Shown here: one piece after another, positions 22,374-63,632 of the stretch | Layout: each line of letters starts with the position of its first letter | How positions within the stretch are numbered: position 1 is the stretch's first letter | NCBI GenBank assembly: GCA_964600575.1 | Contig: CAZRJH010000004.1 | Location: 70,711-134,710, forward strand | Origin: an uncultured Gammaproteobacteria bacterium | Lineage (GTDB): Bacteria > Patescibacteriota > Microgenomatia > UBA8517 | Reading direction: 5' to 3' | DNA: 64,000 nt | Program-made: the position numbers and the translations under genes | Notes under the pieces: generated by a model | What the model was told of the DNA's origin: nothing | Database searches by the model: none | Seen by the model: only the letters and a program-made list of their open reading frames with translations

Positions 22374-23612
22374 TCAATAGTTTTGTGTATTGTAACCGTC
22401 GACTTTGTAAGTTTTGTCTGATGCAATGTTTTTTTGGTTTGAACTGATTTTCGGGCATTGCACATTCAGACAGACCAAAAAGACTTTATCTGGATTTTGG
22501 ACAATTTCGGAAAAAGACTCGGTGCTAAAGTTATCTATTCGAGTAAATTTCCGGCCTGTATGTTTTTCAATCTGGGCCCATAAACCGGCCTCAATAAGAG
22601 TATTTCTTTTGTTATCTTTTAAAACTAGCATTTGAAAACTCGTTGCTTCTGAATTCAACACTATATTTTCGGAAATATCCCAGATTTTTCCTTGTGAAAT
22701 AAAATTGTAATCAAGAAATGCCCCTTTGCTTATCAATAGAATAAAGATAGGTATTATTAATATTTTTCCCAAGGCTGTTAAATTTGATCTTGTGAGTATT
22801 CCGACTGAAATTGTAATAATTAAAAAATTAAAAGCAGTTAAATATCGTAAAAACCCTCCCGTGTCATTTAGACTACCTGAGTTGAACGCGACGAATTCTG
22901 ACTCCGATTTTAAAAAATCCAACATGACGGGGTAATAACAAATCGTTAATAGTAGAGCGGATGCCAGTAAGCATCGGAGAATAGATTTTTCTTTCTTAAT
23001 AAGCAAAAAAAGAAAATATAGGCCAAGATACAAGTATCCTGCATTGTAGATGATGCCCGCAGTCGTCAAAGACAAAGTAGCGACTATATGAAAGTACTGG
23101 TTGGCTTCCTTTTTTGTACCTAAAAGTAAACCAAAAAATATTAATGGCAAATTTAAGTAGGATCCCCAGTAGGCTGAGGCAATGTCAAGAAAAAATCTGG
23201 ATTCGACTAAGGAAAATATTGAAACAAGACTGCCAAAGTAGCCGAATTTATTTTTTAGAATTAAAAAAAGTAAAAACAGTGAGTAAGACAGTATTAAAAT
23301 GTTAGCAACAAAGAATATTCGAATATCGTCCCAAAGCCTAACTAAATATGAGCACAAATAGAAATAAATTGGGCTCGATAATCTGGTATTGGTAAAATTG
23401 GAAGGCGGGCCTCTGGCAATTTTTTCTTCTGAAAAAGCTAGATGACGACCAACCAAGTAGTCGCGCCAAGTATCTTCGCGGATTGTATCAAAATCGTTTA
23501 TATAAGTTGCAAAAATCGAAGATATTCTTGTAACTATTAATAGAGCCAACAAAATAGGCAAAATCCGGAGCAGGATTTTGATTATTTGTTTCATTCCGTT
23601 TGTACTATCCAC
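22374..23612 (-). CDS. Polytopic membrane protein (≥8 TM) with C-terminal soluble domain; function unknown
   Basis: 412 aa, strongly hydrophobic over residues 1-300. Its 5' end overlaps the 3' end of the giant gene by 22 nt. Confidence 0.6.
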   Translation of the reverse strand: MDSTNGMKQIIKILLRILPILLALLIVTRISSIFATYINDFDTIREDTWRDYLVGRHLAFSEEKIARGPPSNFTNTRLSSPIYFYLCSYLVRLWDDIRIFFVANILILSYSLFLLFLILKNKFGYFGSLVSIFSLVESRFFLDIASAYWGSYLNLPLIFFGLLLGTKKEANQYFHIVATLSLTTAGIIYNAGYLYLGLYFLFLLIKKEKSILRCLLASALLLTICYYPVMLDFLKSESEFVAFNSGSLNDTGGFLRYLTAFNFLIITISVGILTRSNLTALGKILIIPIFILLISKGAFLDYNFISQGKIWDISENIVLNSEATSFQMLVLKDNKRNTLIEAGLWAQIEKHTGRKFTRIDNFSTESFSEIVQNPDKVFLVCLNVQCPKISSNQKNIASDKTYKVDGYNTQNY

Positions 23613-26600: not shown

Positions 26601-29600
26601 GTGTCAGTAGTCTTTGTTGTATTAGCCGTGCCGTCGTAGAGATCAATTGCTGAATCGCTATCAACCCCAATCACTGTAACTCCACCGGTATTTGTGGTTG
26701 CGTCGTTTATACCTACGTAAATTGCACGGTTACTATTGTCCAAGGTTACTGCAGTAACCTTGTTAGATGTGGTTGTACCCCCAGATGCGTTACCCATCAA
26801 TCTTTGATAGTTATCAACTCCTGTCACTCCTGCTATGCGGGAGGCCGTGTGGTTAAGTAGTGCTCTGGAACCTACCTGGTACATTCTTTTTACTTGGCTT
26901 ATCGATAATGCTTCTGCTGTTATAGACATATCGTCCAAATCTCCATTCCAGAAATTTGCACCTGTTGCACAGGCGGCTCCTGTTGAACAATCTGCGCCAA
27001 CTCCCATTATTACTCCAGTGCCTGTTAAAGTTCCCGTTGCGGTTAACGATACATCAGAGGCCGCAAGTTGTCCGTCGATATAAAGTGAAATTGAACTTGT
27101 GCCATTTTTTACAGCTACCAAATGGTGCCAGGTGTTATCCAAATAGGTTGTTGTGGTTGTAGCTTGGTCGTCTGTGGGATCGGCATTGGTCCATGTAGCA
27201 TCATCATCGATGCCAAATGAGATTGTACCTGTAGAGTTCATCCAAACTTTCCAACCTAAAACCGCAGCCGGGGTGGTGTTATAAGTGTGATCGATTATTA
27301 CATCGTCGTTGGGTGCTGCCGGGGGAGCAGAAACTGAATGCTTAAACCAGGTTGATACAGAGAAAGAACCTGTTCCAAAGTCGTAATCGCTGTCTGTGTC
27401 GCAGGTGTTGTCGTTGTTGGCATCGGAACAGAAGAAATCATCGGTGTTATCAAGCGTAACACCTGTTCCGCGGACACCCGAACCGTATGTGAATCCTGTT
27501 CCGTTGGCGTTGTCTGCATCTAAAACATTTCCCTTTACGGAAATATCTGTAGCATTGGCGTTGTCTGCAATTGATCCGCTTCCGTTGAAAGGCCACATTG
27601 CTCTAACATCTCCCGTCATGTCATCGCCTATATAATCCTTTGTGTAGTATTTTGCAGAACCGTTGCTTTCGTCTCCTTTTTTGTCGTTAACAACAGACAA
27701 ACTTCCGGTTGTATCGTTGGTTGCTGATGCAACATAGATGGTGTCTGATTTACCGTCAACTGCGGATGTTCCTGTTGCTACAAAAAGTGCATCCGGAGCA
27801 ACATTTATTATTTGTGCTGAAGAGAATAAATAAGGACCGGCGACAGCAGCTGCACCTGCGATTTTTACCCCCGTTTCGTCCCAGGCAACATCGGGGGTTC
27901 CGTTTAATTCGCTTCCGGAGTCCGTTACAACAGAGTTCCATCTTTCCAGCTGTCTTGATGTACCGTTTAATGCGTACAAGTCTCCGCTGGTGCTAAAGAA
28001 TGTGCTTTGGTACACATCGCTTGTTACATCTGAGTAGCTGTAAACAGTATTAGTTGTTTCGTTAATTACAGAGACCCCAGTGTTATTTGCTACTGCGACA
28101 AATGTTTTGCCGTTGAAAGTGATTGCATGGATGTCTTCTACCGTGCCGTTAGATATGGGGGAGGACGGGCCTGTTGTCCAGGCAACGGTTGAATTTCTGT
28201 TTGCAATGTTTTTGTCGCCAAAGTAATCGTCGGTAGCGTTGTATCTTTGAGCTCTATCGTTTTTGAAATCTATAACATAGAGTCCGCCAGAACCGCCGTT
28301 GTTTCCAAGATAAACTTTACCGTTAAGGGCAAAGATTGAAGAACCAGTGGATCCTGTCGAAGGCCCGATCATTTGTTCGGTTGCTCCCGAGCCCTTGGCA
28401 AACTCCATCCACATTGTGTTGTCTTTGGCATCAAAAATATACAAGCGTGAGCCGGAGACGGTTAATATTGCCTTTTGGGGGAATTCTCGTTTTCCGCATC
28501 GGTCGTCGCTGTCTAAAGTACATGCAGTTCCGATAGCTTGATCTATCGTTTCGTTATACCAAGATGATGTTTTGGCGCGTTCATCGTTTGTCCATATACC
28601 GCCATCTGTATCTTTAGTTGTGTCATAAACATATGTGTTAACTGCGGTTGTTGTAATTGCTTTTTCGTCTTTCTGGCCTGCAATGTTCTCGTCTGAGTTT
28701 GTCCAGGCAAATCCTGTCCTGTTTGCATCACTTGCTAAAGCCAAGAAGTTACCGGATGTGAGAGATGTGCCTGAAACATCAATTATGTTTTGCGTAGTTG
28801 CTCCGCTATTTACATTTACAGTTGTTGCAACTGCGGTATTTCCGACATTTACTGTATCCGCAGAAGTTCCGCCTGTGGCTATATTTATTGTGTCGGCTCC
28901 TGTACCTGTTGCAATGTTTAATGCATTCCCGCCGTTACCAGTGCCAAGATTTATCGCTGTATAAGCGGAGTTACCTGTGCCCAAATTAAGGGCGGTTGTC
29001 GCAGCTCCACCCAAAGACAAAGTTGTTGCATTTGTATTGAATATAGTGGCGGGACCCGATCCTGTTGTGGTTATGTCGCTTCCGTTTACTGCAGCATCAC
29101 CGTTGGCTGTTATGTTTCCCGAAGCGTCAACTACAAACATTGTTGCAAGAGAGTTGGTTGCATAGATAAAGTTACCTGTGAACGAACCTCCGCCTGTATT
29201 GTCAAAATCAAAGAATAAACCGTTTCCTGTAAAGTTTTGTGGACCGGATTCTCCCAACTTGATTATATTACCCGAAGTTATGGCGGAAGCTGTTGCCTCG
29301 AATAGATTGCCTGTTGTTATAACGGTTGAGTTGATCTTTGCTATATCACCGATCGCATTCTCAATCCCGAATACTTGGAATGCGGAATTGGTCGCCGTTC
29401 CGCCGATTGCCAAATCATAAGTTGAGTTGGCAGGGGAGAGAATTTTGTTTTGCAATTGCCACCAACCTTGAGTTCCCGTTGTTGCTGTTGTTGTGATAGC
29501 ACCCGAACATGTAAGGTTGCCGTTGGCGCCGTCCATGGTACAACCTGTATCACCACTACCACCCTCGAATAGTATAGAAGCTGTTCCGCTTCCTGTTGGG

Positions 29601-32600
29601 CCAATGTTGAATGTGGTTGCAGCACCACCAAAGTTAATCGTTGTAGCTGTTGCGTTAAGGAGTGAGAAGCTGGTCTCATCAGTTGATATAGATGCTCCAT
29701 TAACAGCCAAGGAATTATTAACTGTTGTTGTACCTGTGGCTCCTCCAATTCCCAAAGTTGTTGCATTTGTAAATATATTTCCTGTAGTTTGAGATGTTGT
29801 TAAGTCACCTCCGTTAACTGCAACATCTCCGGCACAGGTTAGGTTGCCCGTGGCGTTTGCAATGGTACAACCTGTTGCAGCACTTCCACCTGCTATCTCT
29901 ACATCTCCGGCAGAAATGTTATTCAACTGCAAAGCGGAGGAATTTCCGGAATCGAGTCTTAAAATGCTTCCTGATTGAGAGTTGGATATTGAGTGGACAC
30001 CTGTTCCTGTAAAGGATATGCCGGCGGCATTGCCGGAAAATGTTTGACCGGTTGTACCTGCTGTTGAAATGTTCCCGGTTGAATCAACTGTGTAATAAGT
30101 TGCCCCTGCATTATCAAATCTTAAGAAATTTCCGCTAAAGTTACCTCCGCCTGTATTATCAAGATCTGCAAATATTGCATTACCCGAGAAAGCGTGTCCG
30201 TCTCCGCCACTTCCCAGTTTAACTAAATTACCCGTGGTTATTGCACTTGCTGTTGCCTCGAAAACATTACCTGTTGTTATTGTATTTGAGTTGAGTTTAA
30301 CAACACCGCCGTTTGTATTTTCTATACCAAAAGCTAGGAATTTGGCGGAGGATGTAGAGTTGCCTCCAACTACAACATCGTAGGTTTGGTTGGAAGGATA
30401 AAGTGTCTGATTCAAAAGTGCCCAATGACTTGCACCTGCAGGACAGTTGGCGCCACTGCTATCACAAACTGCAAATCCGTTTTGTGTAAATGCGTCTGCA
30501 TATATATTATCCCAGGGAAGTGAGCCGCTACCCAAATCGTTTGTTCCTGTTGTTCCTATCGGAATCAAATCGCTATCCTGCGCAACTCTGGCTGTAAATG
30601 TAATATTGTCCGTTATCGCGTCTCCAAGAGCAGTGTTACCGTTAACACTCAAGTCTCCGATTCCTGTTACATTTTGTCCGTTTCCTGTAACTGCTCCAAG
30701 AAGTGTAAATGCACCCAATCTTAATGTGCCCGCAGATGCCGTTATGTCATGACTGCCTGCCCCTGTTGCAAATGTTATATCTGAGTCGACTCCCGTGAGT
30801 GTTACACCTGTTGTTCCTGTTGTTGATATATTTCCGTTGGCATCAATTTGGAACGCGTCGCCGGTTCCGCCTGTCAGAGTTCCCGAAACATCCAAGTTTC
30901 CTGTTACATTTGTATTGTCTTGTAATTCAATTGTTCCTCCTGCATTCAAAATTACTTGGTCTGCAGATGTAAGAGTTATATCGTTACCTGCACCATTTGA
31001 TGTTAAGGAAGCTGTTGAGCCTTGTAATGTGATTGTTTGCCCTGTGACACCAACTGTAAGAGCGCCGCCCGGAGTTATGTTTAGCGCACCAGATGATGTA
31101 ATGTCACCGCCGTTTACTGCCAGGTCTCCCGAAGTAACAATGTTACCGGCCGAATTTACTGTCAAAACTGTTGCACCCGCATTATCAAATCTTAAGAAAT
31201 TACCCGTAAACGAACTTCCTCCTGTGTTGTCAAAATCCATGTAGATTCCATTACCTGTGAAGTTTCCGTTATCTCCACCTGTGCCCAATTTAACCAAGTT
31301 ACCCGAGGTTATAGCCGAAGCGGTTGCTTCAAAAACATTGCCTGTTGTTATTACAGTTGAATTTAGTTTGGCAATGTCACCGCCTGCAGTTTCTACACCA
31401 AATACCTGGAAAGCAGATCCTGTTGCAGTTCCTCCGATTGTTAGATCGTAAGTTGAATTGGCAGGGGAGATTATTTTGTTGTTTAACTGCCAGTAAAGCG
31501 AACCTGCAGGACAATTTGTTCCACTACTGTCACAAACTCCAAACCCGTTTTGAGTAAACGCATTTGCATATACATTGTCCCAAGGCAGGGAAGCACTACC
31601 CAAATCATTTGTTCCCGTTGTTGTTATGGGGAGTAAATCAACATCTTGAGCTACTCTTCCGGTGAATGTGATGCTGTCGGTTATCGCGTCTCCAAGAGTA
31701 GTATTACCGTTAACACTCAAGTCTCCGATTCCTGTCACATTTTGTCCGTTTCCTGTAACCGCTCCCAAAAGTGTGAACGCTCCCAGTCTGAGTGTTCCAG
31801 AAGATGCTGTTATGTCATGGTTTGATGTACCTGAGAATGTAAAATCAGCGTCGTTGCCACTTAAGGATATTCCGGTTGTTCCTGTTGAGCTGATATTGCC
31901 TGTTGAATCAACTTGGAATGCATTTGAGCCTCCGCTTGTCAGAGTTCCCGAAACATCCAAGTTCCCTGTGATGTTTGTGTTGTCTACTATTTCTACAGTT
32001 GTCCCTGCATCGAGAATTATTTGGTCGGCTGAAGTTAGCGATATGTCATTTCCTGCGCTGTTGGAAGTTATAGATATTGTCGAACCTTGCAGTGTTGCAG
32101 GTTGGGTTGTAACACCAGCTACCAAAGCTCCCGTTGGGGTAATATTCAAAGCACCTGTTGATGTAATATCGCCACCGTTTACTGCAACATCGCTTGCTAC
32201 TATGTTTCCGCTTGAATCAAAGTGGAAAGTTGTTCCACCCCCAACAGAAAAACCGTTTGAGTTTTGTAAGTATCCCGAAACTCCCGTAAGTGTATTGGAG
32301 TTGGGAAGTGTAAAGGTTCCTGTTGCGGTTAAGTTTGCTCCGTTTGCAGTTAATGCTGCCGACCCCCTGGAATTGATAACAACATTACCTGTAGAAGATC
32401 CTCCCAAGGTTAGGTCAGCCATATTTGTTGTTGCCAAATTTCCATTACCTGTTAAATAGGTTGCAACGTTGGCAACGGAACCTGATACGGATGCTGTTGG
32501 GGTTCCAGAGGCAACATTAATAAAGGCAAACTTTGCGGATGTTGTTGCGTTGGAACCTACTAAAAGGTCAACGGTATTGTTTACATTGTATAAAGCTCCA

Positions 32601-40570: not shown

Positions 40571-41098
40571 TTAGTGATTAATTTCGAAGTTTCCTTTGTT
40601 TTCATCGAGCCAGCTTAAAAACTGTCTTACATCTGAGACATAGTTTTTGAGAGTGCTTGAGCTTACCTTTTCAGCCTCCAAAAACACTTTAAAGTCGTCG
40701 ACTATATCAAAAGACATCTTTGGAGCTGGGCGGTTCTGTGCAATGTTTTCTATCCCGGTTGTGAAATCAGAATTTACGATTTGGGTTGCAACCATAAACC
40801 TGCTTAAGTGTCTAAGTGTCGAGAGTCTTCTATTCACCGACCCTATTGGCTGGCTGTTTTCGATCATGTAGTTTTTGTACTCCGTGGCAATGTTTTTGTT
40901 GAGAAAGGGAACTGCTTCTGTAAGTGTTTCGACATACGACCCGTAAGACCTAAGACGGAGGATTAACCAACCCAGAAAATGAGACAAATCGCTTCTGTAG
41001 TTTTTGTGCGATTTTGGAGTAACGCCCAAAGTATCAAGATATTTAGAAAACTCTTTGCGGATGATATCGTTATCGATTTTGGGCATTTTTGTAATCAA
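40571..41098 (-). CDS. Stand-alone protein with two tandem phage-integrase N-terminal SAM-like domains and no catalytic domain
   Basis: 175 aa. Repeat 1: PKSHKNYRSDLSHFLGWL. Repeat 2: SSSTLKNYVSDVRQFLSWLDENKG. Compare the XerC/XerD N-terminus (NTLxAYRRDLxxFxxWL). No R..HxxR..Y tyrosine-recombinase catalytic region follows. Confidence 0.72.
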   Translation of the reverse strand: MITKMPKIDNDIIRKEFSKYLDTLGVTPKSHKNYRSDLSHFLGWLILRLRSYGSYVETLTEAVPFLNKNIATEYKNYMIENSQPIGSVNRRLSTLRHLSRFMVATQIVNSDFTTGIENIAQNRPAPKMSFDIVDDFKVFLEAEKVSSSTLKNYVSDVRQFLSWLDENKGNFEINH

Positions 41099-50115: not shown

Positions 50116-50396
50116 CTTCTACCGGTTTATCTTCCGGTGCGCTTTTAAGCCAAACAACTTGACCTTGTTCTGTTACCTCTTTAATTACTTCTTGGGGAAA
50201 AGACTGTTTTAACTCGCTGCCCTTAATATTTTCCAATGTCATATTTCAAAATTTACTACTTTGTGTTTTTGCTGTCAAATTTTGGTTATAAAACACTAAA
50301 AGGGGCTTGCAATTTTCACGAAATAATAAGTAAATTAGTGTATTACAAAGTTGGACATTTGAATATAAATGTCCAAGTTTTTAAAGACACTGCCCA

Positions 50397-53300: not shown

Positions 53301-56300
53301 GTTACAGGAAAAGCTTTAGTTAGGATTGACGAAACAGGTGATCAAAATCTTTTTGTAGCTTCGGCCTCGGGGGTTACTAAATTTACAATAGATAGGTCGG
53401 GCAATGTAGTTGCTTCCGGGACAATTGCGGCATCAAATTTTTCGGGATCCAGTAGCGGCACAAACACAGGCGACCAAACAATTACTCTTACGGGCGATGT
53501 AACAGGAACAGGAACGGGCTCTTTTGCAACAACAATTGCTGCTAACTCGGTGGCACTAACAACTGACACAACAGGAAATTATGTTGCAACCGGAGCGTCC
53601 GGAAACGGAGTTTCGTTAACCGGCGGCGGGTCCGAAGGTGCAACTTTAACAGCCAACTTAGGTTCTTTAACCGGAGATTGGGATCAGACTGGGGCATTTG
53701 ATATAGCACTCAATAACTCTTCTTCTGAATTAAAAATTCTGGAATCCGGGTCAACTCCCACTCTTTATGGTATTTTTGACATCGGAGATTTGAGTTCGAC
53801 AGATTCTACTTATACTTTCTCCGGAGGATCCGGGAATGTTCTTACGACAGCTAACTACACAGGCACTCTTGACTCGGTGTATGTAAACGTTGCCGAATCT
53901 CCTGCAGCTGGAGATGTTGCTGGCAGCTTCTCGGGAGGACTTACTTTAAATTCAAACACAGTTGATGACTCCGAACTTGTGGACTCGCTTACATATACAG
54001 GTGCTTTTTCTGTAGGCAACCTTACGATTTCGGACACAAACATCCCCTTAACCGGATCTTCTTTAACTTTTGATTTTAACAATGCAAGCGATAGGACTTT
54101 GACAATTGCCAATGCAGGCGCAGGAACGGCAAATTTGTCTGTTGACGGCACAATTGCAGCCAGTAATTTCTCCGGCTCCAGTAGCGGAACAAACACAGGA
54201 GATCAAACTATTACTTTAACTGGAGATGTCACCGGGTCGGGAACAGGATCTTTTGCAACAACAATTGCCGCTAATTCAGTTGCGCTAACTACCGATACGA
54301 CGGGTAACTATGTACAAAGTCTAGCAAATGGTAATGGAATAACCGGTGCGGACGGCGGAGGAGAAGGTTCTGCTTTAACTTTGGCAGTGGATCAAACTTT
54401 CGGATTTACATTAACAGGAAATAACACTTTCTCACCAAGCTCAACCAATGATCTTACAATTAATACCGATGCAGACTCAACTTTGGCTCAAGTATTTTCT
54501 AGCTCAACAAACAATACAAGTTCAAATACTGTTTCTTTGACCAACTCTGCCTCAAGCGGAACGATTGCAGTTAAAGGCTTAGATTTTACATTTACGGGAA
54601 CAGACAATGCGGGCGGTGCAAACACAATCACAGGCATTAATTTCGCAAACGCAACTGCCCATACAAATAATACTTATAACGGGCTCACATTCGGTACTGG
54701 TTACACAAACTTTTTAACAAGTGGAACTATTGATATTTCTGCAGATGGAACAATAACTGGTTCAACAATTGCAGCAGGAAGTAACACAATAACAGGACTT
54801 ACAAATTCAAATCTTTCTGGAAGCGCAGGAATCACAAACGCCAACTTGGCGAATAGTTCAGTAACGATAAACTCAAGCGGAATATTAACAGGCGGCGGAT
54901 CAGTTTCTTTGGGAGGAAATATAACATTAACTGCAACAGAAGCAGACACATTAGCCAGCGTAACAGGAAGAGGAGCAACAACTTCTACTGCATTAACACT
55001 ATCTAACGCATCAAACAGTATCACTGCAGGAACTTTGACGGCAACAGGTGGAACTATAAACGGAACAGTGATTGGCGGTTCAACACCTGCTGCTGCAACA
55101 TTTACAACTCTAAATTCTAACGGGGATACAACTTTGGGAGACGCAATAACAGACAACATTACATTTACAGGCCGTGTTGCACAGGATTCTGACCTTTTGC
55201 CTATAACAACAACAGGAACAAACGATTTGGGAAGCGGGTCTCTGCCCTGGGACAACATTTATGCAAATGCCATAACTCAAAATGGAAATCTGGTCTGTGA
55301 TGCAAGCGGCGCCAACTGCCCTGCGGGTGCAGGTTATTGGGCGCAGGCAAACGGGGCAATCAACCCAACAAACAATTCAGTTGATTTGTTGATTGGTGGA
55401 AATGCGACAACTTCTGCCAAGTTCGCTTTCCAAAATGTTCTTACAGGCACTCCCACTGCAAGTATTTCCGGCACAACTGCAAATGTTTCAACATTTTTAA
55501 CAGGTGAAGGAAATCTGGCAACTACAAACATGCAACCTTTAACAATTGGTGGATCTACAACAGGTTCGGTTCAAATTAACCCCAAGGGATCCGTAGGACT
55601 ATTTGTAAATGGTGGCGGGTCGGTAGGGGTAGGATCAACATCTGTCACCTCGGGTTACCTTTTGGATGTTGCAGGGAATATTAGATCTTCTAATCAAGTC
55701 TTTGGAGATGGTGGTTCGTTTGTGTCATTTAATGCGGCAGGCGCATATTTGGGAGACACCAACTACGCAGCAGGCGGAGGGATTGGTTATGGTGCAAGCA
55801 AAACTCAAATTTGGGCAGGGAGCGGGTTCCCACTCACATTTGGAACCGCCGGAACTGAATACATGAGGTTGAGTTCAAATGGTGGTTTGTCGTTGGGGGC
55901 TTCGTATTTAACCACCGACGCTGGTGCTGGGAATATGATAGTTACAGGTACGGCTGGTTTTGGAACATCGGGACCTGATGCAAAAGTTGATTCTCTGTCA
56001 ACCTCAGGTGAACAATTAAGGCTAACCTATACAGATGGGTCGGTTTATGCAGGCTTTACAGTTGGTAGTGGGGGTGACTTAACGATTGCACCATCTGGTG
56101 GTGACACAAATGTTACAGGTAATTTGGCAGCAACAGGCACAGTAACCGGATCCAACTTAAGCGGTACCAACACAGGTGACCAGACAATTACCCTTACTGG
56201 TGATGTGACAGGAACAGGAACAGGCTCTTTTGCAACAACGATTGCCGCTAATTCAGTTGCATTAACAACAGATACAACGGGTAATTATGTACAAACGTTA

Positions 56301-59300
56301 ACCAACGGCGCGGGTATTTCCGGTGCGGACGGCGGAGGAGAGGGATCTGCCTTAACTTTGGCGGTAGATCAAGGATTTTCACCCACTTGGACAGGTAGCC
56401 AAACATTTAGCCCGGGTTTAACGAATGCAATTGATATTAACTTGGACTCCGATTCGTTACTAACAATAGATCAGAGTTTTACAGGAACAACAACCGCCAA
56501 TAGCTCCACTCTAACGCTGACAAATACAAGTTCCAGCGGAACACAAAACGGTTTGTACGTAGACAATGCCGCTTCAAGCGGAGTAACAGAATCACTCTTG
56601 GTTCTTGATAATTCTGATACCGATACAGCTGTAACAAACGGAATACAATTTGTTGACGCAGGTGGCACGTTTACCAACCTCTTTAATGTCGCAGGTACAC
56701 TTATAAGCTCTTCCGAATTTACGATCTTGGACGGTGGAATTGCACTATCCGAACTTACAGATAGCGGAACTCTAACTGCAGGAACGGTTGATATCAACGG
56801 CGGTGCAATTGACGGTACAACAATCGGGGGCACCTCTGCAGCCGCCGGAACGTTCACAAACCTTACTGCAACAGGAGACGTGACAATGAATGATTCATCT
56901 GCTGACACGATTCTTATTGGACAAAGCGGAGCCACAGATGACACTGTAACAATTGCGGGTAATATTTCTTTGACAGATGACCAATGGTCTATTTCTGCAA
57001 CTGGGGTGGCAACTGGAATAACCGGTATTACCGCCGATAGCGTTTCCTTTGCTAATGTAACTGGCGCAACTAATACTAATACTTTGGTAATTGGTTCGGG
57101 AGGGTCTTTGGCTACAAGCGGAACAGGAACAATTACGGCAACCGACCTAAGTTGTGCCGATTGTATTGGAGGGACAGAAATTGCAGATCTTACACTTGGA
57201 ACGGATACGGCAGGTAATTATGTGGCTTCCGTTGCAACCTCAACCGGGTTAACAGGTGGTGCAGGAGGGTCGGAAGGTGCCGGTTTAACACTTTCTATCG
57301 ATCAAAGCTCATCTTTGACATGGACGGGTAATACTGCATTTAGTCCTTCTTCTACAAACGATCTAACTGTTAATACTGATGCTGATTCAACATTGGCTCA
57401 GGTGTTTTCCAGCGGTACCAACAATACGAGTTCGGAGACGATTTCTTTAACCAACTCTGCATCAAGCGGAACAATTGCAGTTAAAGGTTTGGACTTTACA
57501 TTTACAGGCACAGACAATGCGGGTGGTGCAAATACAATCACAGGCATTAACTTTGGTAATGCAACAGCCCACACAAATAATACTTATAACGGACTTACAT
57601 TTGGAACAGGATATACAAACTTTTTGACTAGCGGAACAATTAATATAGCAGCAGGCGGCACTATAACAGGTGCAACATTGGCCGCGGGAAGTAACACGAT
57701 TTCTGGACTTACAAACTCCAACTTATCAGGATCTGCGGGAATCACAAATGCCAACTTGGCAAATAGTTCAGTAACGATAAACTCAAGCGGAATATTAACA
57801 GGTGGCGGATCGGTGTCTTTGGGTGGAACCCTCAATTTAACTGCAACAGAGGCCGATACTTTGGCAAGCGTTACAGGCCGGGGGGCAACAACATCAACAG
57901 GAATTACACTGTCTTCCGCAAGTCCGCTCACACTAAGTAATTCCGCTCCGGTTATTACTTTGGGTGCGGGGGATGCAAACGGAACTCTTACCATCAAAGA
58001 TAGCGCAGGTTCCCCTAATACCTTATTAACACTCACCGATACAGGAACTGTGGGCAACTTAGCGGCAACAGGAACGGTAACCGGATCCAACCTAAGCGGC
58101 ACCAATACAGGCGACCAAACAATTACCCTTACTGGTGATGTGACAGGAACAGGAACAGGCTCTTTTACAACAACAATTGCTGCCAACTCGGTAGCATTAA
58201 CAACAGATACAACAGGTAACTATGTACAATCGTTAACCAATGGCGCGGGTATTTCCGGTGCAGACGGCGGCGGGGAAGGTTCAACTCTTACGCTCGCGGT
58301 TGATCAAGCCTTTAGTCCAACATGGACAGGTGGCCAGACATTCACCCCGGGTAGCACGAATGGTATAGATATTAATTTAGATAACGATAGCTTGCTTACA
58401 ATCGATCAATCATTTTCCGGCACGACAACTGCAAATAGTTTAGCCTTAACTCTTACAAATACCAGCTCTTCTGGAACCCAGAACGGATTATATTTGGATA
58501 ATGCTGCAAGTAGCGGTGTCACAGAATCACTTTTAGTTTTAGATAACTCTGATACAGATACCGCAGTGACAAATGCCATCCAATTTGTGGACGCGGGTGG
58601 GACATTTACAAACCTATTTAATGTCGCGGGCACTCTAATAAGCTCATCTGAATTCACGATCTTGGATGGCGGGATAATACTTTCCGAACTCACAGACAGC
58701 GGAACATTGACGGCAGGTACGGTTGATATAAACGGTGGAGCTATCGATGGAACTACAATTGGTGGTACTTCAGCAGCGTCCGGTACATTTACAACATTAA
58801 CCTCGACAGGAACGGTTGACATTTCAAGTGACTCGGGTGCTGACACAATCACAATAGGACAAAGCGGAACAACCGATGACACTGTTACGATAGCGGGAAA
58901 CATTTCTTTAACGGATGATCAATGGAGCATTGGTGCTACCGGAGTTGGTGCTTTTGTAAGCGGAACAACAATCGGTTCTCAGACATTTACAACCAACAAC
59001 ATAGCTGATTCCGGAGCGTTAACAATTAAATCTGCCTCGGGTGCAAATGCATTAACTTTGGACTCCGGCACAACAGGAAATGTTAACTTGGGTACAAGTA
59101 ACAATGCAAAGACAATCGCAATTGGAACGGGTAATGCCGGAAATACTATAAATGTAGGAACTGACAATACAGTTTCTGACACAATTAATATTGGAAGTGC
59201 CTTGGATAATGTTTCCATTACAGGTGATCAATGGAGCATAACCGATGCCGGAGTTTTGACTGTTGCCAGTTGTACAGGCTGTGGAGGCGGGGGTGGAACA

Positions 59301-62300
59301 CTGCAACAGGCTTACGATGCCAGTAGCGGCAACACAATTCTTACAACAACAGGGCGAAACATTGCATTTACTTTAGGTGAAGTTGCATCACCTACATCAT
59401 TAACTTTAACGAACCAGGATACTGCCGGTGTAACTGCCTTAGCCTTAACAAATTCAATAACCTCAGGAACCCTTACAAATGGTATTTTAATAGATCAAAC
59501 AGGTGCAGGAACGCTTACATCCGCGCTTAAAATAGTTGAGTCTGCAGGAACTATAACCGACGGAATTGTTATTTCCGGCACACTTTCTAATATACTTAAT
59601 TCGGATTCGATCGATATAACGGGCGCGGGTGCCATAACAGGTGCAACGGGCATTTCTACAACTACACTAACCTCGACCGGAACATCAAATATCGGCAGCA
59701 ACTCAGGTGCGGTTACTTTGGATTCTACGGGCACAATAACTCTTAACGATGCTATCGTTTCGGTTGCCAATCAAGCCACCGATTTTGACATAATCGACAA
59801 TACGACCAATGCCTTTACTGTTTCCGAGGGTTCAAACAATTATATTTCCTTGTCTACAAACAACGGTGCACCCGTTGTAACCATAGACACTTTGGAAAAT
59901 GGCGGAACAATGAATTTTGGTTCGAGCAACTTCTCAAGGACTGTGAATATTGGTACAGGCACTGCCGCCGACACCGTAAACATCGCAACAGGTGGAACTA
60001 CGGCAGACGCAGTTACAGTTGGTAACACGGGAGTTGCAACTACATTTACATTTAACTCGGGTGCAACAACTCAATCTCCGGTTGTGTTTAATCTTGATGC
60101 ATTAACTCAAGGAACAGGAGTCGATCTATCTTTGGACGGACTAACAACAGGCTTGGGTCTAAAAGTGGACGACAATACGGGAGCAGGTCTTTCTACGGGA
60201 AGCTTGGTATATGTAAATTCCGTATCAACCGCTCTAACATCCCCAACAAACGGCGGAAGTTTAGCTTACTTTAACTGGAATCCTGCAAGCACAACAAATG
60301 CAACGGGTGATTTGGTAAGAATAAACATAGGATCAAACGGAAATGTTGCAAACTTATTTAATGTTACCGACAATGGCACATCTTTGTTTAGAGTTTCCGA
60401 AAGTCAAATAGAATCAGCCGTGCCACATTCATTTAGTGCGGTGGGAGATGTTTCCATTGCATACGACTTGATATTGTCCAATCAAACCTCATCTAACATA
60501 AAAGCCAAAGGACCTCTGACAATCGACGGCGGAGAACTTTTTGAATCGAACGATTTAACTCTTAAAACATACAACGCCGGAGATACGATAATTACGAATG
60601 GTACAAGCGGAAATATCGCAGCCTTTGGTTTTGATGCTATTGCGGGTGCATCCGGCAATTTCTTTAGCGTCAACCCGACACTTACAGCAATGGACGGATC
60701 CGATACAGTTAGGGGTGTTTATGTAAACTTGACGAATGCTAATCACACAGGTGCCAGCAACACCCTTAATTTAGTTGATATCGGCGCTATAACGGGTGAT
60801 GCCGAGTCCACTCTTAACGCTATCAATATCGGTGCCCTCACAGGAACTGCGGCCACAGAAACTGCAATAAACGTAGGATCTGGATGGGACACAATTCTTA
60901 GCGGAACAACTGCTGGTACAAATATATTCTCATTTACAAACGCAACCCTTACCTCAGGCGGCGCACTTACTGTCACATCTTGTTCGGGTTGTGGAGGCGG
61001 GGGTGGTGCGCTTGATACATTAACAGCAGCAACGGGTGACGATGCGGCATTGTTGTCTGCGGATAACACAATCGAATGGAATTGGGCACTCACATCCGCC
61101 ACTTCTAAAGGCATAACACTTGGCGAGAGCGCCGCTTCTACCGGAGGATCGGGAGATCAACATATTCTTAGACTTGATACAGCATCGGGTTCAACGGCCG
61201 GTCCTCTGGAGATAGTTTCCAACAGTGCAGACAGTGGTGATGTAGAAATTAATCTTAATTCTTCAGGTGATTTCGAAGTTCAGGATGCAGGTACAGCCTT
61301 TGCAACTTTTGCCGACGACGGAACAATTACTCTTGGCAAATCGGCCGCTGCCTCTACTGTAAATATCGGAACAGGAACGGGAATAGACACTATAAACATT
61401 GGAACAGGTGCAACGGCGGCAGACGCTTTAACATTTGGCAATACAGGAGTTGCAACTACATTTACATTTAACTCGGGAGCAACAACTCAATCTCCGGTTG
61501 TGTTTAATCTTGATGCATTAACTCAAGGAACAGGAGTCGATCTATCTTTGGACGGACTAACAACAGGCTTGGGTCTAAAAGTGGACGACAATACGGGAGC
61601 AGGTCTTTCTACGGGAAGCTTGGTATATGTAAATTCCGTATCAACCGCTCTAACATCCCCAACAAACGGCGGAAGTTTAGCCTACTTTAACTGGAATCCT
61701 GCAAGCACCACAAACGCTACGGGTGATTTATTCAGAATAAACATTGGCTCCAGCGGAAATACTTCGGGATATTTGTTTAATATTACCGATAACGGATCGT
61801 CACTCTTTGCAGTATCGGAAAATCAAATCGTATCTGCCTTGCCTCATAACTTTACCGCGGCTGGAGATGTTTCGGTTGCTTATGACTTAGTTTTCAGCAA
61901 TCAAACATCCTCCTTGATTGATAGTTACGGACCTTTAACAATTAGGGCGGGTGAGAGCTTTGAAAACAACAACCTAACGCTTACAACATTTGGCACGGGG
62001 GCAATAATTGCAGATACCAAGTTTTCTTTTGACTCGCAGTTGACCCTGCCGGATAATACAACACCTTCCGTAACCTCGGGAAATCACTATATCGAAGCCA
62101 ATTCGACAAACAGACTTATCACAAACTTCACAAACGGCACTTCGGGTCAGGTTATATTTATCGAAATTGGTACTGCCAACTTTGACCTTGACTGTACAAC
62201 ATCGAACATTAATTGTGGAACTACGGATATGACCGGTTTTGCGGCTGGTGACCAGGTAATGCTTATTTACGACGGAACAAATTGGAACCTCCTGGGTTGG

Positions 62301-63632
62301 ATGGACGCATCGGCAAACAATAACGATAATACAGATGGTGTTGACATCGCAGAGTTTTTCCCAAGCCTTCAGGTTTTAACTGCCGGGGATGTAGTTAAGC
62401 TTGACTCGGAAAATGCTGAGCATGTTATTAAATCAGCATCCGCTTATGAAAACAAGGTTGTTGGTATAGTCTCAACAAACCCCGGTATCACATTGGGGCA
62501 AAATAACGGTTCAGCATATGCAATAGCCTTGGCAGGACGTGTTCCGGTAAAAATATCCAATAGTTCCGAAGCGATTATTCCTGGAGATTATGTTACAACT
62601 TCTACAGAAGCGGGTAAGGCTATGAAAGCTTCGGGGAACGGTCGTGTAATCGGTCAAGCGCTGGAAAGCTGGAATCCAAATTCTGGTAAATCCGAAATAG
62701 TAGTATTTATAAACAACAGCTGGTTCGAAAATGCCCCGAGCATTGCGTCGGACGGAACATTGAGTGTGGATTTGAGTGTCGAAAATATAAAAACCAACTC
62801 TATCTCTGCCAAGGACGGTTCTAGTGTTTCTTTGAATTTGGGATCTGCAGCTACAACTTCTGCTGAATTCAAGGTTAGTGATGCATCCGGATCTGCGGTT
62901 TTTGCAATAGACTCAACGGGTAATGCTACAGCCTCGGGGGACTTGTATGCGACAAATCTGCATGCACAAAATATTGAACAAATCGAGGCATTATTGGCGG
63001 ACGTTATGATTGGTCAGGACGCACTAAGTAGTGTTATAGCCGAAAAGATTGCAACGACTTCCGCCAGTTTGGTCGACCTATCAACAGAAAACCTATTTGT
63101 TACAAATCAGGCGGCTGTGTATTCGTTATCCGCAACTACAGCCGTTGCTGTGGGGAGCGATTTTATAATCCAAGGCTTAGACTCGTCCATAAATAGTCTT
63201 GTTGCTCCTCTAAAAATCCAATCACTTGCTTTAGCACCTGTCGAAATAATGGGCGGCCTTGTAAACATAGATACAAGCGGCAATATCGAGATTGCAGGAG
63301 ATTTGGATGTACAAGGTTCGGTTAGTACTGCAGAAATAATAATTACGGGCGATACAGCAGGAAAATCTAAAGTGCCTGCTGGGGCGACCGAAGTTATAAT
63401 CCAAAACCAGAATATAAAACAGGGGACATTGGTATTTATCACTCCAACATCACCAACAAGTAACGGGCTATATATAAAAGAACAAACCGACGGAGAAGTA
63501 AGGGTCGGTTTTGTACTTGCGGAAGACTTCGATGTCACATTTAATTGGTGGATAATCGGCACTGGAGTATTGGGAGAATCAACGCCTTCGGCCTCTCCCA
63601 ATGCAACCGGGTCGGGACAGCTAAATCAATAA
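50397..63632 (+). CDS. Giant (4411 aa) membrane-anchored surface protein, paralog of the 23591..40564 product
   Basis: A 13236-nt open ORF. Cytoplasmic N-terminus with MerR/excisionase-type HTH (LKIAQAAEKLGVSTKTLRRWEASGILTPRRTPGGQRVY). TM near aa 83-103. Then Thr/Gly/Ser/Asn-rich repeats: SSVTINSSGILTGGGSVSLGG...TATEADTLAAVTGRGATTST five times, GTNTGDQTITLTGDVTGTGTGSFATTIAANSVALTTDTTGNYV five times, and large duplicated blocks. Poly-Gly Cys motifs CTGCGGGGG and CSGCGGGGG. The C-terminal ~260 aa are homologous to the minus-strand giant. Confidence 0.85.
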   Translation: MRYLKIAQAAEKLGVSTKTLRRWEASGILTPRRTPGGQRVYLATQVESFVRPQKQTGKTRERVYARVHEVHKSISYKSFAYGGVMTAFLVLTFLSLFKVDFRFRAVSQESNVLGAASTRNPVIAFIEDFTRPVYSLFQSTSKGIQIALAHFDISQTFEGANISVTNNQAGGSTGIADRSITGNKIAIQTILNENIARGQISVDRLVATMSFPSTYLVDLSAIKHTTTSNQGLVLPNTSNSNPSKPTSGEGYLAYDTSGNQLILYNGSNWQTVSGGGGGSGDITTVTAGEGLTGGGDSGDITLNIVGGNGFLVSGDQIDLDTTTTGTTSTTSANSGLEVTTAGLSLIRGCSNSQILKWNASSSIWYCASDNSGSGGSLDIEEGGSVVVSTPTAINFTASEFAVTESPSGVGLIAIDYVNSKISRYDATETLTNKTIAAGSNTISGLTNANLTGSAGITNANLANSSVTINSSGILTGGGSVSLGGNLTLTATEADTLAAVTGRGATTSTALTLSNASNAITAGTLTVGSDAVTDLTGSGLTLSTGALTVSGLTTSNFASPNISQFTNNSGYITSSSSDTLTNKTISGSSNTITSIGNSSLTNSSVTINSSGILTGGGSVSLGGNLTLTATEADTLAAVVTRGSTTTALVNLNGGIISQGAVTGKALVRIDETGDQNLFVASASGVTKFTIDRSGNVAASGNVTGSNLSGTNTGDQTITLTGDVTGTGTGSFATTIAANSVALTTDTTGNYVADLSAGNNAITIAGSAGEGWTPSVSLALQSAANGLSSTTSNGSGLEITTGGLTLLQGCDDGQIIKWNETTDTWACSNDSTGGSSITAKEGGSTIISALSAINFTSNDFVITDEGSNQAGIAVDYTNSKISRYDASETLTNKTISGASNTISNIGNSSLTNSSVTINSSGILTGGGSVALGGTLNLTATEADTLAAVTGRGATTSTLVNLNGGIISQGAVTGKALVRIDETGDQNLFVASASGVTKFTIDRSGNVVASGTIAASNFSGSSSGTNTGDQTITLTGDVTGTGTGSFATTIAANSVALTTDTTGNYVATGASGNGVSLTGGGSEGATLTANLGSLTGDWDQTGAFDIALNNSSSELKILESGSTPTLYGIFDIGDLSSTDSTYTFSGGSGNVLTTANYTGTLDSVYVNVAESPAAGDVAGSFSGGLTLNSNTVDDSELVDSLTYTGAFSVGNLTISDTNIPLTGSSLTFDFNNASDRTLTIANAGAGTANLSVDGTIAASNFSGSSSGTNTGDQTITLTGDVTGSGTGSFATTIAANSVALTTDTTGNYVQSLANGNGITGADGGGEGSALTLAVDQTFGFTLTGNNTFSPSSTNDLTINTDADSTLAQVFSSSTNNTSSNTVSLTNSASSGTIAVKGLDFTFTGTDNAGGANTITGINFANATAHTNNTYNGLTFGTGYTNFLTSGTIDISADGTITGSTIAAGSNTITGLTNSNLSGSAGITNANLANSSVTINSSGILTGGGSVSLGGNITLTATEADTLASVTGRGATTSTALTLSNASNSITAGTLTATGGTINGTVIGGSTPAAATFTTLNSNGDTTLGDAITDNITFTGRVAQDSDLLPITTTGTNDLGSGSLPWDNIYANAITQNGNLVCDASGANCPAGAGYWAQANGAINPTNNSVDLLIGGNATTSAKFAFQNVLTGTPTASISGTTANVSTFLTGEGNLATTNMQPLTIGGSTTGSVQINPKGSVGLFVNGGGSVGVGSTSVTSGYLLDVAGNIRSSNQVFGDGGSFVSFNAAGAYLGDTNYAAGGGIGYGASKTQIWAGSGFPLTFGTAGTEYMRLSSNGGLSLGASYLTTDAGAGNMIVTGTAGFGTSGPDAKVDSLSTSGEQLRLTYTDGSVYAGFTVGSGGDLTIAPSGGDTNVTGNLAATGTVTGSNLSGTNTGDQTITLTGDVTGTGTGSFATTIAANSVALTTDTTGNYVQTLTNGAGISGADGGGEGSALTLAVDQGFSPTWTGSQTFSPGLTNAIDINLDSDSLLTIDQSFTGTTTANSSTLTLTNTSSSGTQNGLYVDNAASSGVTESLLVLDNSDTDTAVTNGIQFVDAGGTFTNLFNVAGTLISSSEFTILDGGIALSELTDSGTLTAGTVDINGGAIDGTTIGGTSAAAGTFTNLTATGDVTMNDSSADTILIGQSGATDDTVTIAGNISLTDDQWSISATGVATGITGITADSVSFANVTGATNTNTLVIGSGGSLATSGTGTITATDLSCADCIGGTEIADLTLGTDTAGNYVASVATSTGLTGGAGGSEGAGLTLSIDQSSSLTWTGNTAFSPSSTNDLTVNTDADSTLAQVFSSGTNNTSSETISLTNSASSGTIAVKGLDFTFTGTDNAGGANTITGINFGNATAHTNNTYNGLTFGTGYTNFLTSGTINIAAGGTITGATLAAGSNTISGLTNSNLSGSAGITNANLANSSVTINSSGILTGGGSVSLGGTLNLTATEADTLASVTGRGATTSTGITLSSASPLTLSNSAPVITLGAGDANGTLTIKDSAGSPNTLLTLTDTGTVGNLAATGTVTGSNLSGTNTGDQTITLTGDVTGTGTGSFTTTIAANSVALTTDTTGNYVQSLTNGAGISGADGGGEGSTLTLAVDQAFSPTWTGGQTFTPGSTNGIDINLDNDSLLTIDQSFSGTTTANSLALTLTNTSSSGTQNGLYLDNAASSGVTESLLVLDNSDTDTAVTNAIQFVDAGGTFTNLFNVAGTLISSSEFTILDGGIILSELTDSGTLTAGTVDINGGAIDGTTIGGTSAASGTFTTLTSTGTVDISSDSGADTITIGQSGTTDDTVTIAGNISLTDDQWSIGATGVGAFVSGTTIGSQTFTTNNIADSGALTIKSASGANALTLDSGTTGNVNLGTSNNAKTIAIGTGNAGNTINVGTDNTVSDTINIGSALDNVSITGDQWSITDAGVLTVASCTGCGGGGGTLQQAYDASSGNTILTTTGRNIAFTLGEVASPTSLTLTNQDTAGVTALALTNSITSGTLTNGILIDQTGAGTLTSALKIVESAGTITDGIVISGTLSNILNSDSIDITGAGAITGATGISTTTLTSTGTSNIGSNSGAVTLDSTGTITLNDAIVSVANQATDFDIIDNTTNAFTVSEGSNNYISLSTNNGAPVVTIDTLENGGTMNFGSSNFSRTVNIGTGTAADTVNIATGGTTADAVTVGNTGVATTFTFNSGATTQSPVVFNLDALTQGTGVDLSLDGLTTGLGLKVDDNTGAGLSTGSLVYVNSVSTALTSPTNGGSLAYFNWNPASTTNATGDLVRINIGSNGNVANLFNVTDNGTSLFRVSESQIESAVPHSFSAVGDVSIAYDLILSNQTSSNIKAKGPLTIDGGELFESNDLTLKTYNAGDTIITNGTSGNIAAFGFDAIAGASGNFFSVNPTLTAMDGSDTVRGVYVNLTNANHTGASNTLNLVDIGAITGDAESTLNAINIGALTGTAATETAINVGSGWDTILSGTTAGTNIFSFTNATLTSGGALTVTSCSGCGGGGGALDTLTAATGDDAALLSADNTIEWNWALTSATSKGITLGESAASTGGSGDQHILRLDTASGSTAGPLEIVSNSADSGDVEINLNSSGDFEVQDAGTAFATFADDGTITLGKSAAASTVNIGTGTGIDTINIGTGATAADALTFGNTGVATTFTFNSGATTQSPVVFNLDALTQGTGVDLSLDGLTTGLGLKVDDNTGAGLSTGSLVYVNSVSTALTSPTNGGSLAYFNWNPASTTNATGDLFRINIGSSGNTSGYLFNITDNGSSLFAVSENQIVSALPHNFTAAGDVSVAYDLVFSNQTSSLIDSYGPLTIRAGESFENNNLTLTTFGTGAIIADTKFSFDSQLTLPDNTTPSVTSGNHYIEANSTNRLITNFTNGTSGQVIFIEIGTANFDLDCTTSNINCGTTDMTGFAAGDQVMLIYDGTNWNLLGWMDASANNNDNTDGVDIAEFFPSLQVLTAGDVVKLDSENAEHVIKSASAYENKVVGIVSTNPGITLGQNNGSAYAIALAGRVPVKISNSSEAIIPGDYVTTSTEAGKAMKASGNGRVIGQALESWNPNSGKSEIVVFINNSWFENAPSIASDGTLSVDLSVENIKTNSISAKDGSSVSLNLGSAATTSAEFKVSDASGSAVFAIDSTGNATASGDLYATNLHAQNIEQIEALLADVMIGQDALSSVIAEKIATTSASLVDLSTENLFVTNQAAVYSLSATTAVAVGSDFIIQGLDSSINSLVAPLKIQSLALAPVEIMGGLVNIDTSGNIEIAGDLDVQGSVSTAEIIITGDTAGKSKVPAGATEVIIQNQNIKQGTLVFITPTSPTSNGLYIKEQTDGEVRVGFVLAEDFDVTFNWWIIGTGVLGESTPSASPNATGSGQLNQ
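54180..58830 (+). repeat. Mosaic segmental duplications inside the plus-strand giant gene (units of ~0.3-0.75 kb repeated at ~1.9-2.9 kb spacing)
   Basis: ADSTLAQVFSS.TNNTSS.T.SLTNSASSGTIAVKGLDFTFTGTDNAGGANTITGINF.NATAHTNNTYNGLTFGTGYTNFLTSGTI occurs at ~54470-54740 and ~57380-57650. TIDQSF.GTTTANS..LTLTNTSSSGTQNGLY.DNAASSGVTESLLVLDNSDTDTAVTN.IQFVDAGGTFTNLFNVAGTLISSSEFTILDGGI.LSELTDSGTLTAGTVDINGGAIDGTTIGGTSAA occurs at ~56460-56880 and ~58400-58810. Confidence 0.8.
60030..60330 (+). repeat. Copy 1 of a near-identical ~300-bp direct repeat within the plus-strand giant gene
   Basis: ggagttgcaactacatttacatttaactcgggtgcaacaactcaatctccggttgtgtttaatcttgatgcattaactcaaggaacaggagtcgatctatc... is virtually identical to 61446-61746. 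Encodes GVATTFTFNSGATTQSPVVFNLDALTQGTGVDLSLDGLTTGLGLKVDDNTGAGLSTGSLVYVNSVSTALTSPTNGGSLAYFNWNPASTTNATGDL. Confidence 0.85.
61446..61746 (+). repeat. Copy 2 of the ~300-bp near-identical direct repeat (1416 bp downstream of copy 1)
   Basis: Same as above, with only a few synonymous or near-synonymous differences over ~270 bp. Confidence 0.85.

Follow-up and report, generated by a model that had tools for sequence, protein, structure and literature searches.

Do two giant genes that point away from each other across a set of housekeeping genes form a recombination switch, or does their similarity have an older origin? The question is raised by a 64,000-nucleotide (nt) stretch of contig CAZRJH010000004.1 (the window), which would belong to an uncultured Patescibacteria bacterium within the Candidate Phyla Radiation (CPR; Microgenomates-like). 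A sequence-only reading of the window had proposed that the two genes, here called A and B, encode paralogous adhesins whose shared modules form long inverted repeats around leuS, comEA-comEC, and argS, and that homologous recombination between these repeats would invert the core or exchange modules. We favor a different explanation, to which we assign a probability of about 0.72: A and B are members of a large, unannotated Patescibacteria family, their products are membrane-anchored fibers, and the inverted repeats are old and not an active switch.

Each protein begins with a short cytoplasmic DNA-binding-type domain (a MerR helix-turn-helix [HTH] in B, integrase core-binding SAM-like motifs in A) and is predicted to cross the membrane once, by an N-in/C-out transmembrane (TM) helix. 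Thousands of residues of phage-tail-fiber-like modules follow, and then a conserved C-terminal region, preceded in B by a domain of the type found in gp12 of phage phi29. The proteins would assemble into long, probably trimeric fibers that extend outward from the cell and probably serve to attach it to a host cell or to a surface. The inverted repeats would be the DNA shadow of shared protein modules from a family-wide pool, too diverged for frequent recombination of the RecA type.

Anatomy of two giant proteins

The two genes are open reading frames (ORFs) that lie on opposite strands, where the sequence-only reading had placed them.

23591-40564, minus strand: giant gene A, an ORF of 5657 amino acids (aa)
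50397-63632, plus strand: giant gene B, an ORF of 4411 aa

A, whose sequence is identical to database protein P0071, consists of one SAM-like (integrase core-binding-like) half-motif, a TM helix, a modular region rich in Thr, Gly, Ala, Asn, and Ser, and a conserved C-terminal domain. B consists of a MerR-type HTH, a TM helix, internal repeat families of its own, a single A-type module, a gp12-like domain, and a conserved C-terminal domain. The internal repeat families are separate in each protein, spanning aa ~700-3900 of A and aa ~300-3900 of B, where tiles are up to 97% aa-identical. Tandem Repeats Finder returned nothing at a score of at least 100 over 23591-63632, the repeats being too long and diverged for it. 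A and B can be called paralogs in the module, the C-terminal domain, and overall composition, but not in the N-terminal ~1500 aa, which are unrelated (identity along the diagonal equals background). We rejected A and B as collinear whole-gene duplicates: with the module excepted, zero-diagonal identity was 0.096 compared to a background of 0.096 ± 0.008.

The features that define the N termini, and those directly upstream of A, are as follows.

50409-50519, plus strand: MerR-family HTH of B, aa 5-41 (Pfam PF00376; E = 3.8e-12; score 46.2 bits, cutoff 28.2)
50631-50687, plus strand: TM helix predicted in B, aa 79-97, FAYGGVMTAFLVLTFLSLF, which scores highest in hydrophobicity among all 19-aa windows of the protein (Kyte-Doolittle hydropathy 1.89)
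40265-40336, minus strand: signal-anchor TM helix of A, aa 77-100 (hydropathy window 2.54), with a KKK-rich stretch before it
40571-41098, minus strand: 175-aa SAM-like ORF (Pfam PF02899/PF13495/PF13102)
41131-41159, minus strand: promoter-like site upstream of the SAM-like ORF and A (TTGACA-17-AATAAT, 11/12; a consensus match only)

In B, the HTH is followed by a basic linker, the TM helix, and then more than 4300 residues predicted to be extracellular. On the strength of such helices, A and B are both predicted to be signal-anchored proteins of N-in/C-out topology. The 175-aa ORF upstream of A contains three integrase-N "SAM-like" half-repeats, without a catalytic recombinase domain. It is in frame with A, the gap being a TAA plus two codons, and the pair has one promoter-like site upstream and no terminator-like site. 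A region of ~160 residues homologous to this ORF is fused as the N terminus of the giant in at least 30 more distant members, and also in L001 (CAYSAY010000004.1), from the closest genome found in the species-representative collection (LeuS 62% identical). As the homologous region is the N terminus of the giant in these members, we rejected the ORF as a degenerate integrase. The ~30 closest homologs begin at A's Met, so the split looks like a conserved fission or possible read-through rather than a sequencing error. An alternative genetic code, suggested by the in-frame TAA, was also rejected, since both giants are uninterrupted under code 11 and the homologs share the start Met.

The family is large. 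With the first 400 aa of A as query, we obtained 433 cluster representatives at E ≤ 1e-3 and 72 at E ≤ 1e-30, many of them 2000-5800 aa long, and the closest ~30 align to A from residue 1-3. Among the best 150 of the 433, the C-terminal domain stands at the very end in 91, the gp12-like domain is present in 52, and the first half of the shared module is present in 26, with 0-6 copies per protein. The family N terminus (SAM-like motif or motifs, TM helix, and first extracellular domain) is found in A but not in B, and the conserved domain at the extreme C terminus is found in both; B's own repeat types also recur in family proteins. Named homologs come from Woesebacteria, Beckwithbacteria, and "Patescibacteria group" metagenome-assembled genomes. 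A literature search yielded no description of this giant family, although absence there is no proof.

The C-terminal features are as follows.

23597-24556, minus strand: conserved C-terminal domain of A, aa 5337-5656, aligned with 30 database homologs
62745-63563, plus strand: conserved C-terminal domain of B, aa 4117-4389
62322-62741, plus strand: domain of B with the C-terminal fold of phi29 gp12 and pre-neck appendage proteins, aa 3976-4115 (AlphaFold2 [AF2] and Foldseek)

The two conserved domains are 40% identical in aa across 323 aligned columns, and that of A contains a 46-aa insertion. The shared collinear C-terminal domain described earlier is thus real at the protein level, whereas DNA similarity extends over just 105 nt, at 72%, and not over 800-1100 nt. 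In B, the domain is made of beta strands, one long helix, and a terminal beta-sandwich that ends in the FNWWI motif. The domain that precedes it in A differs from that of B and is common to A, P0018, and P0020.

Both proteins have an extracellular bulk rich in Thr, Gly, Ser, Asn, and Ala. Nearly all cysteines occur in close pairs, 3-17 residues apart (36 cysteines, or 18 pairs, in A; 14 cysteines, or 7 pairs, in B), which span aa 578-5044 of A and aa 349-3940 of B, with one pair per module. This pairing suggests a small disulfide-closed loop in each unit, and it fits an extracytoplasmic location. When compared to PHROGs, the module region of A gave one solid hit, to PHROG 6002 "virion structural protein" (E = 1.4e-22).

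A stronger resemblance to phage proteins came from structure prediction. The AF2 model of B's last 421 aa, built on 32 sequences, had a predicted local distance difference test (pLDDT) score of 79.5 overall and ~97 in its first domain. Foldseek matched that domain, aa 3976-4115, to 3suc/3gqh_A in the PDB (E = 1.2e-4; template modeling score 0.52, normalized to the 163-aa target). In BFVD, the best match, to a "preneck appendage protein," had E = 5e-10 and a root-mean-square deviation of 2.2 Å over 136 columns, and 107 phage pre-neck appendage and tail-fiber-like proteins matched at E ≤ 1e-3. The terminal beta-sandwich of B gave weaker matches to tailspike and pyocin-fiber tips. By sequence, the gp12-like domain had no Peptidase_G2 hit in Pfam at E ≤ 1 and a sub-threshold match to the phage minor capsid family PF23982 (17.3 bits against a cutoff of 27); PDB sequence and profile searches found nothing relevant. 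The domain starts with D-x-A-E, in which the Asp (D9) and Glu (E12) are invariant across 12 homologs. This motif resembles the site at which an Asp/Glu pair of gp12 brings about autocatalytic cleavage, followed by release once the trimer has assembled, and it may correspond to the catalytic residues there.

In the model, B aa 3976-4115 shares the fold of phi29 gp12 (3suc, 3gqh; Pfam Peptidase_G2; an autochaperone domain), and in both cases the domain lies near the C terminus of a long, repetitive, fiber-like protein. Unlike in gp12, where it is terminal, the domain in B has ~300 residues after it, and B is membrane-anchored and cellular. There is also no above-threshold Pfam or PDB sequence match and no such domain in A, and autocleavage in B is putative. 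The locus suggests that the cell has borrowed phage fiber architecture, gp12-type C-terminal domain included.

The cytoplasmic N termini allow a reading in which the giants are more than fibers: they could be membrane-tethered DNA-binding regulators or DNA tethers, with fiber-host contact relayed through the TM helix to the MerR HTH of B or to the core-binding-like domains of A and its upstream ORF. The HTH of B is well above the Pfam threshold, SAM-like motifs are conserved at the N terminus across the family, and the genes adjoin comEA-comEC. The order of parts, first a DNA-binding-type domain at the cytoplasmic N terminus, then one TM helix and a large extracytoplasmic C-terminal portion, is that of ToxR, CadC, and TcpP, although in A and B the first domain is MerR-type or integrase core-binding-like and not an OmpR-type winged helix, the external fiber exceeds 4000 aa, and regulation would be by analogy. 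We nevertheless consider this reading unlikely. DNA binding is a prediction from motifs. MerR-family regulators are soluble proteins of ~130-270 aa, and neither the MerR dimerization coiled coil nor the C-terminal effector-binding region is present after B's HTH. A search with B's MerR-TM N terminus detected no homologs of it, just proteins that share a short Gly-rich fiber motif, and the adjacency to comEC is not kept for a B-like gene in L001. If the reading were true, the giants would regulate transcription or retain DNA where contact is made, possibly tied to uptake through comEA/comEC; they would make up a giant-scale, ToxR-like one-component system in an epibiotic bacterium, and the fibers would be more than passive adhesins.

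Age of the shared modules

According to the sequence-only reading, A and B share a near-identical module with about 85% nucleotide identity. We located module copies with a hidden Markov model (HMM) built from the copies themselves and compared them by alignment and with an identity matrix. Rather than a unique pair, there are ~ten full or partial copies in A and one in B.

29084-38221, minus strand: module array in A, ~ten copies or part-copies (HMM domain hits 5e-35 to 6e-100)
32243-32866, minus strand: A copy aa 2567-2774, the one previously paired with B
33383-34009, minus strand: A copy aa 2186-2394, which equals copy 2567-2774 in its likeness to B (71.4% nt identity over 437 nt)
55083-55706, plus strand: the sole copy in B, aa 1563-1770

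The copies in A begin at aa 782, 1047, 1268, 1563, 1937, 2186, 2567, 2940, 3296, and 3610. The module is a mosaic of a first half, characterized by ITFTGRVAQDSDLLPITTTGTNDLGS.SLPWDN.Y and a Cys-x6-Cys loop, and either of two alternative second halves. Type alpha is found in A782, A2186, A2567, and B1563, and type beta in the remaining copies. The A copy at aa 1563-1774 (35243-35878) and the B copy at aa 1563-1770 share their start residue (nt 4722 in both genes) and are unrelated upstream; given ten copies in A, this is probably a coincidence. The best database relatives of the module are 58-63% identical. One protein that shares it, the partial Patescibacteria protein P0047, carries a precomputed Pfam intein-splicing domain (PF14890). 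Judged from these sequences, the shared module is one item of a family-wide pool of fiber modules and not a special link between A and B.

A blastn comparison of A and B gave six high-scoring segment pairs in total, all 71-76% identical. Five joined the single B site (55118-55565) to five sites in A, and the sixth was the C-terminal region. For the pair named earlier, 55118-55565 in B and 32387-32834 in A (E = 5e-59), we measured 71.1% nt identity over 450 nt, together with 64% aa identity over 207 aa and 72.9% over a 170-aa core. Nucleotide identity was 83% only within a 144-nt core (32691-32834 in A; 55118-55261 in B). The earlier figure of 85% probably reflects protein rather than DNA: over the best 97-aa tile, A copy aa 2186-2394 and B are 85.6% identical in aa. 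The longest exact run common to A and B was 24 nt, inside the coding module, compared to 15 nt in a reversed-sequence control. No long arms of near-identical DNA were found: similarity between the genes was 71-76% across stretches of 105-450 nt and rose to 83% in the best 144 nt. The pair does stay above the 60% nt identity below which the sequence-only reading would have called recombination negligible, a threshold that we judge too lenient.

To estimate the age of the similarity, we used four-fold sites, defined as third positions of conserved Ala, Gly, Pro, Thr, and Val codons, with the chance level taken from codon usage. Identity at these sites between the B module and A's best copies was 41-48%, where ~34% is expected by chance; four-fold sites are thus near saturation between the A and B modules. 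Such near-chance values argue that module similarity is held by selection on the protein and does not reflect recent exchange. The same was true within each gene. Intragenic repeat pairs that are 85-91% aa-identical reached 76-81% identity in DNA but only ~48% at four-fold sites, a combination that corresponds to a very low dN/dS and long persistence without homogenization. By this evidence, the modules are ancient duplicates under strong purifying selection on the protein, with concerted evolution nearly absent even for direct repeats 1-4 kb apart. The divergence of the intragenic repeats at four-fold sites also makes a collapsed assembly of these repetitive genes unlikely.

A same-gene pair in B was the sole clearly unsaturated pair in either giant.

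59940-60493 and 61356-61912, plus strand: most DNA-similar direct repeat pair in B (85% nt identity)

These repeats contain a 203-nt exact run (60063-60265 and 61479-61681) and are 75% identical at four-fold sites; either a recent duplication within the gene or a short tract of gene conversion may account for them.

How, then, did B come to hold one A-type module? B contains two copies of a super-repeat, at aa 1300-2165 and aa 2270-2810, with flanks that are 84% and 90% identical. The first copy has ~360 extra residues (aa ~1540-1902) that hold the module, where the second has ~38. We placed 42 alpha-type modules, taken from A, B, and database relatives, in a neighbor-joining tree. There, the B copy was sister to A's two alpha copies, and it is 72-73% aa-identical to A alpha copies but at most 65% identical to copies from other genomes. 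The sequence-only reading had advised a module phylogeny as a way to detect gene conversion. The module identities gave no sign of recent conversion, and the grouping of B's copy with A's alpha copies points to an old exchange. B thus probably gained its single A-type module through an ancient insertion or exchange, which appears about as old as the split between A's organism and that of P0074, another protein with the module; the direction of transfer, from an A-type gene to B, is likewise inferred. As a lesser reading, fiber tips may have been swapped in the past through the inverted A/B arrangement, with B's singleton module as the fossil of such an event.

Several observations pull the other way and temper our explanation. 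Pfam recognizes nothing in the extracellular parts, the MerR HTH being the sole Pfam hit in both giants. The monomer model of the module was poor (pLDDT 61) and unusable for a fold search, the gp12-like domain is missing from A, and the case for trimeric fibers consists of the fold of one B domain and one PHROG hit in A. The neighbor-joining tree carries no support values. A's copies are slightly nearer to the P0074 copy, from another organism (75%), than to B's (72%), so B's module could have come from an A-type gene other than A. Finally, recombination at ~71-83% identity is very inefficient yet possible, especially if mismatch repair is weak in this lineage, and a rare inversion may exist in the population.

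Inverted arrangement and surrounding genes

The inverted orientation of the shared modules stands as first described; their spacing is 19-24 kb for the module and ~39 kb for the C termini, where 22-39 kb had been given. If a crossover took place in register, it would flip the leuS-argS core and leave each protein with the C-terminal half of the other. Pfam domains bore out the claimed genes of this core, with comEC present as two ORFs.

41635-44229, plus strand: leuS (Pfam tRNA-synt_1, editing, and anticodon-binding domains)
44286-45200, plus strand: 304-aa ORF without a family match, missing from the syntenic block of L001
45236-45865, plus strand: comEA (Pfam SLBB and HHH_3)
45876-47863, plus strand: comEC, split into a Competence domain ORF (45876-46958) and a metallo-beta-lactamase domain ORF (46958-47863)
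48451-50115, plus strand: argS (Pfam)

The two comEC ORFs share a single base here; in L001 (13066-15072), 80 nt separate them, so the split is conserved. L001 retains the leuS-comEA-comEC(split) block. Its A-like giant, which has SAM-like repeats and a TM helix, is located 7 kb upstream of leuS, and four genes stand between the two. Downstream of argS there is no B-like gene in L001; a gene for a 426-aa product unrelated to B stands there instead. The bracketing of leuS-comEA-comEC-argS by giants is therefore not conserved in the nearest genome, and their present placement looks incidental. L001 is titled "uncultured Gammaproteobacteria," yet it is CPR-like, with the closest LeuS, the same block, and an A-type giant; the label is probably wrong. 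By cluster membership, the LeuS, the ArgS, a methyltransferase, and B of the window are all singletons.

Could the inverted modules still be active substrates of homologous recombination, with core inversion, C-terminal swaps, or gene conversion generating ongoing antigenic or host-range variation? We regard this as improbable. The geometry does allow what the sequence-only reading had envisaged: orientation and reading frame permit in-frame chimeras, A offers ~ten alternative registers, B's module resembles an acquired A-type unit, and the 144-nt core is 83% identical. Against an active route stand the overall identity of 71-76%, with an exact run of at most 24 nt, the near-saturation of synonymous sites, and the absence of the arrangement from L001. 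Moreover, as direct repeats within one gene are not homogenized, recombination at a useful rate between inverted repeats of 71-76% identity, 19-24 kb apart, is very unlikely. In E. coli, RecA requires at least ~25 bp of perfectly matched sequence to recombine DNA, and once divergence exceeds 10-20%, the frequency of such events declines by orders of magnitude; applying this to the Patescibacteria lineage here is an assumption by analogy. Neisseria pilE/pilS, Borrelia vlsE, and Mycoplasma genitalium MgPa resemble A and B in that partly homologous modules of surface proteins are repeated and dispersed in the genome. In those systems, however, high-identity tracts flank variable regions and mosaic exchanges are recent, whereas A and B are 71-76% identical with near-saturated synonymous sites. 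Sequence comparison thus lends no support to a mechanism of recombination or inversion that would be active today, nor, with no recombinase catalytic domain found in the scanned ORFs of the window, does the proposed route to antigenic or host-range variation have present-day support.

We also looked for dedicated machinery. Among window ORFs of at least 150 aa, none had a recombinase catalytic domain (Phage_integrase or Resolvase) or a reverse transcriptase domain, and a repeat comparison of the giants found no near-identical pair of the template repeat/variable repeat type. Diversity-generating retroelements are common in CPR. With neither a reverse transcriptase domain nor such a repeat pair, we rejected the giants as targets of one.

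The resemblance to phage fibers raises the possibility that the giants are tail-fiber genes of a prophage or tailocin, or remnants of a mobile element, and not cellular surface proteins. Besides the fold and PHROG matches to phage fiber and appendage proteins, this would accommodate the GC content of the giant genes, which is 44-45% compared to 37-39% in the flanks. The higher GC is, however, explained by the Gly/Ala/Thr-rich composition. Virion fibers have neither the cytoplasmic N-terminal domain nor the membrane anchor that both proteins possess, and hundreds of family members have the same anchored architecture. The neighbors are leuS, argS, and competence and glycosylation genes, with no capsid, portal, terminase, or tail gene in the vicinity. 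We accordingly rejected a phage or tailocin origin of this kind as very improbable.

The least credible alternative, site-specific inversion of the shufflon or Gin/Cin type, in which an integrase-like ORF beside A would flip short sites to switch fiber tips, was rejected: although phage tail-fiber genes are classic targets of such systems (Mu Gin, P1 Cin, and the R64 shufflon) and Phage_int_SAM motifs occur in the ORF directly upstream of A, this ORF has N-terminal core-binding-like motifs alone and is elsewhere the cytoplasmic N terminus of the giant, no scanned ORF has a recombinase catalytic domain, and short, well-conserved inverted crossover sites were absent, inverted pairs outside the module being 24-31 nt long and 74-88% identical. 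The likeness to Mu Gin, P1 Cin, and R64 Rci is that inversion of the DNA flanked by opposed homologous segments could swap the distal parts of fiber-like genes. Here, by contrast, the segment would be 19-24 kb long and carry essential genes, and its arms are diverged coding modules.

Downstream of A, 15002-23612 encodes a methyltransferase, a GT2 glycosyltransferase, a DegT-type aminotransferase, a PMT_2-like glycosyltransferase, a signal-peptide protein (21347-22303), and a membrane protein (22374-23612) whose gene overlaps A's stop. These genes could provide glycosylation machinery for a Thr/Ser-rich fiber. At 236-12115 and 17017-18195 on the plus strand lie 11 same-strand ORFs of 330-500 aa, each with an N-terminal hydrophobic helix. 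They are 21-53% identical to one another, have no Pfam match at E ≤ 1e-5, and by their sequences form a tandem array of paralogous, apparently membrane-anchored proteins with no assigned function.

Relation to known giant surface proteins

A and B are like the giant surface proteins of episymbiotic Patescibacteria and DPANN archaea: each is a protein of more than 4000 aa from an ultrasmall organism, with an anchor, a predicted extracellular bulk, and a proposed role in host attachment. Very large Patescibacteria proteins are preferentially surface-targeted and have been proposed to function in host recognition (PMC13059738; Absconditicoccaceae proteins >1500 aa). The published giants have been characterized through adhesion domains, among them fibronectin III, Ca-stabilized adhesin repeats, concanavalin A, and integrin-like domains (PMC13059738), whereas A and B have no Pfam extracellular domain. 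A and B also differ from them in their resemblance to phage fibers and their cytoplasmic DNA-binding-type N termini. They thus fit a known kind, the giant surface proteins of episymbiotic ultrasmall prokaryotes, and are distinctive in their phage-fiber-like build and DNA-binding-type cytoplasmic anchors.

In the sequences compared here, members of this giant-fiber family appear to vary because modules are gained, lost, and occasionally transferred on long evolutionary timescales. The locus also holds a caution. Long "inverted repeats" between genes for repetitive surface proteins can reflect nothing more than conservation of the protein, with synonymous sites saturated, and should not be taken for recombination switches. 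The cytoplasmic DNA-binding-type N termini are unexpected and testable. To our knowledge, how Patescibacteria recognize and hold their hosts is largely unexplained beyond a few cultured Saccharibacteria, in which type IV pili are implicated. With hundreds of cluster representatives and a shared pool of modules, the giant family provides concrete candidates for host-binding structures.

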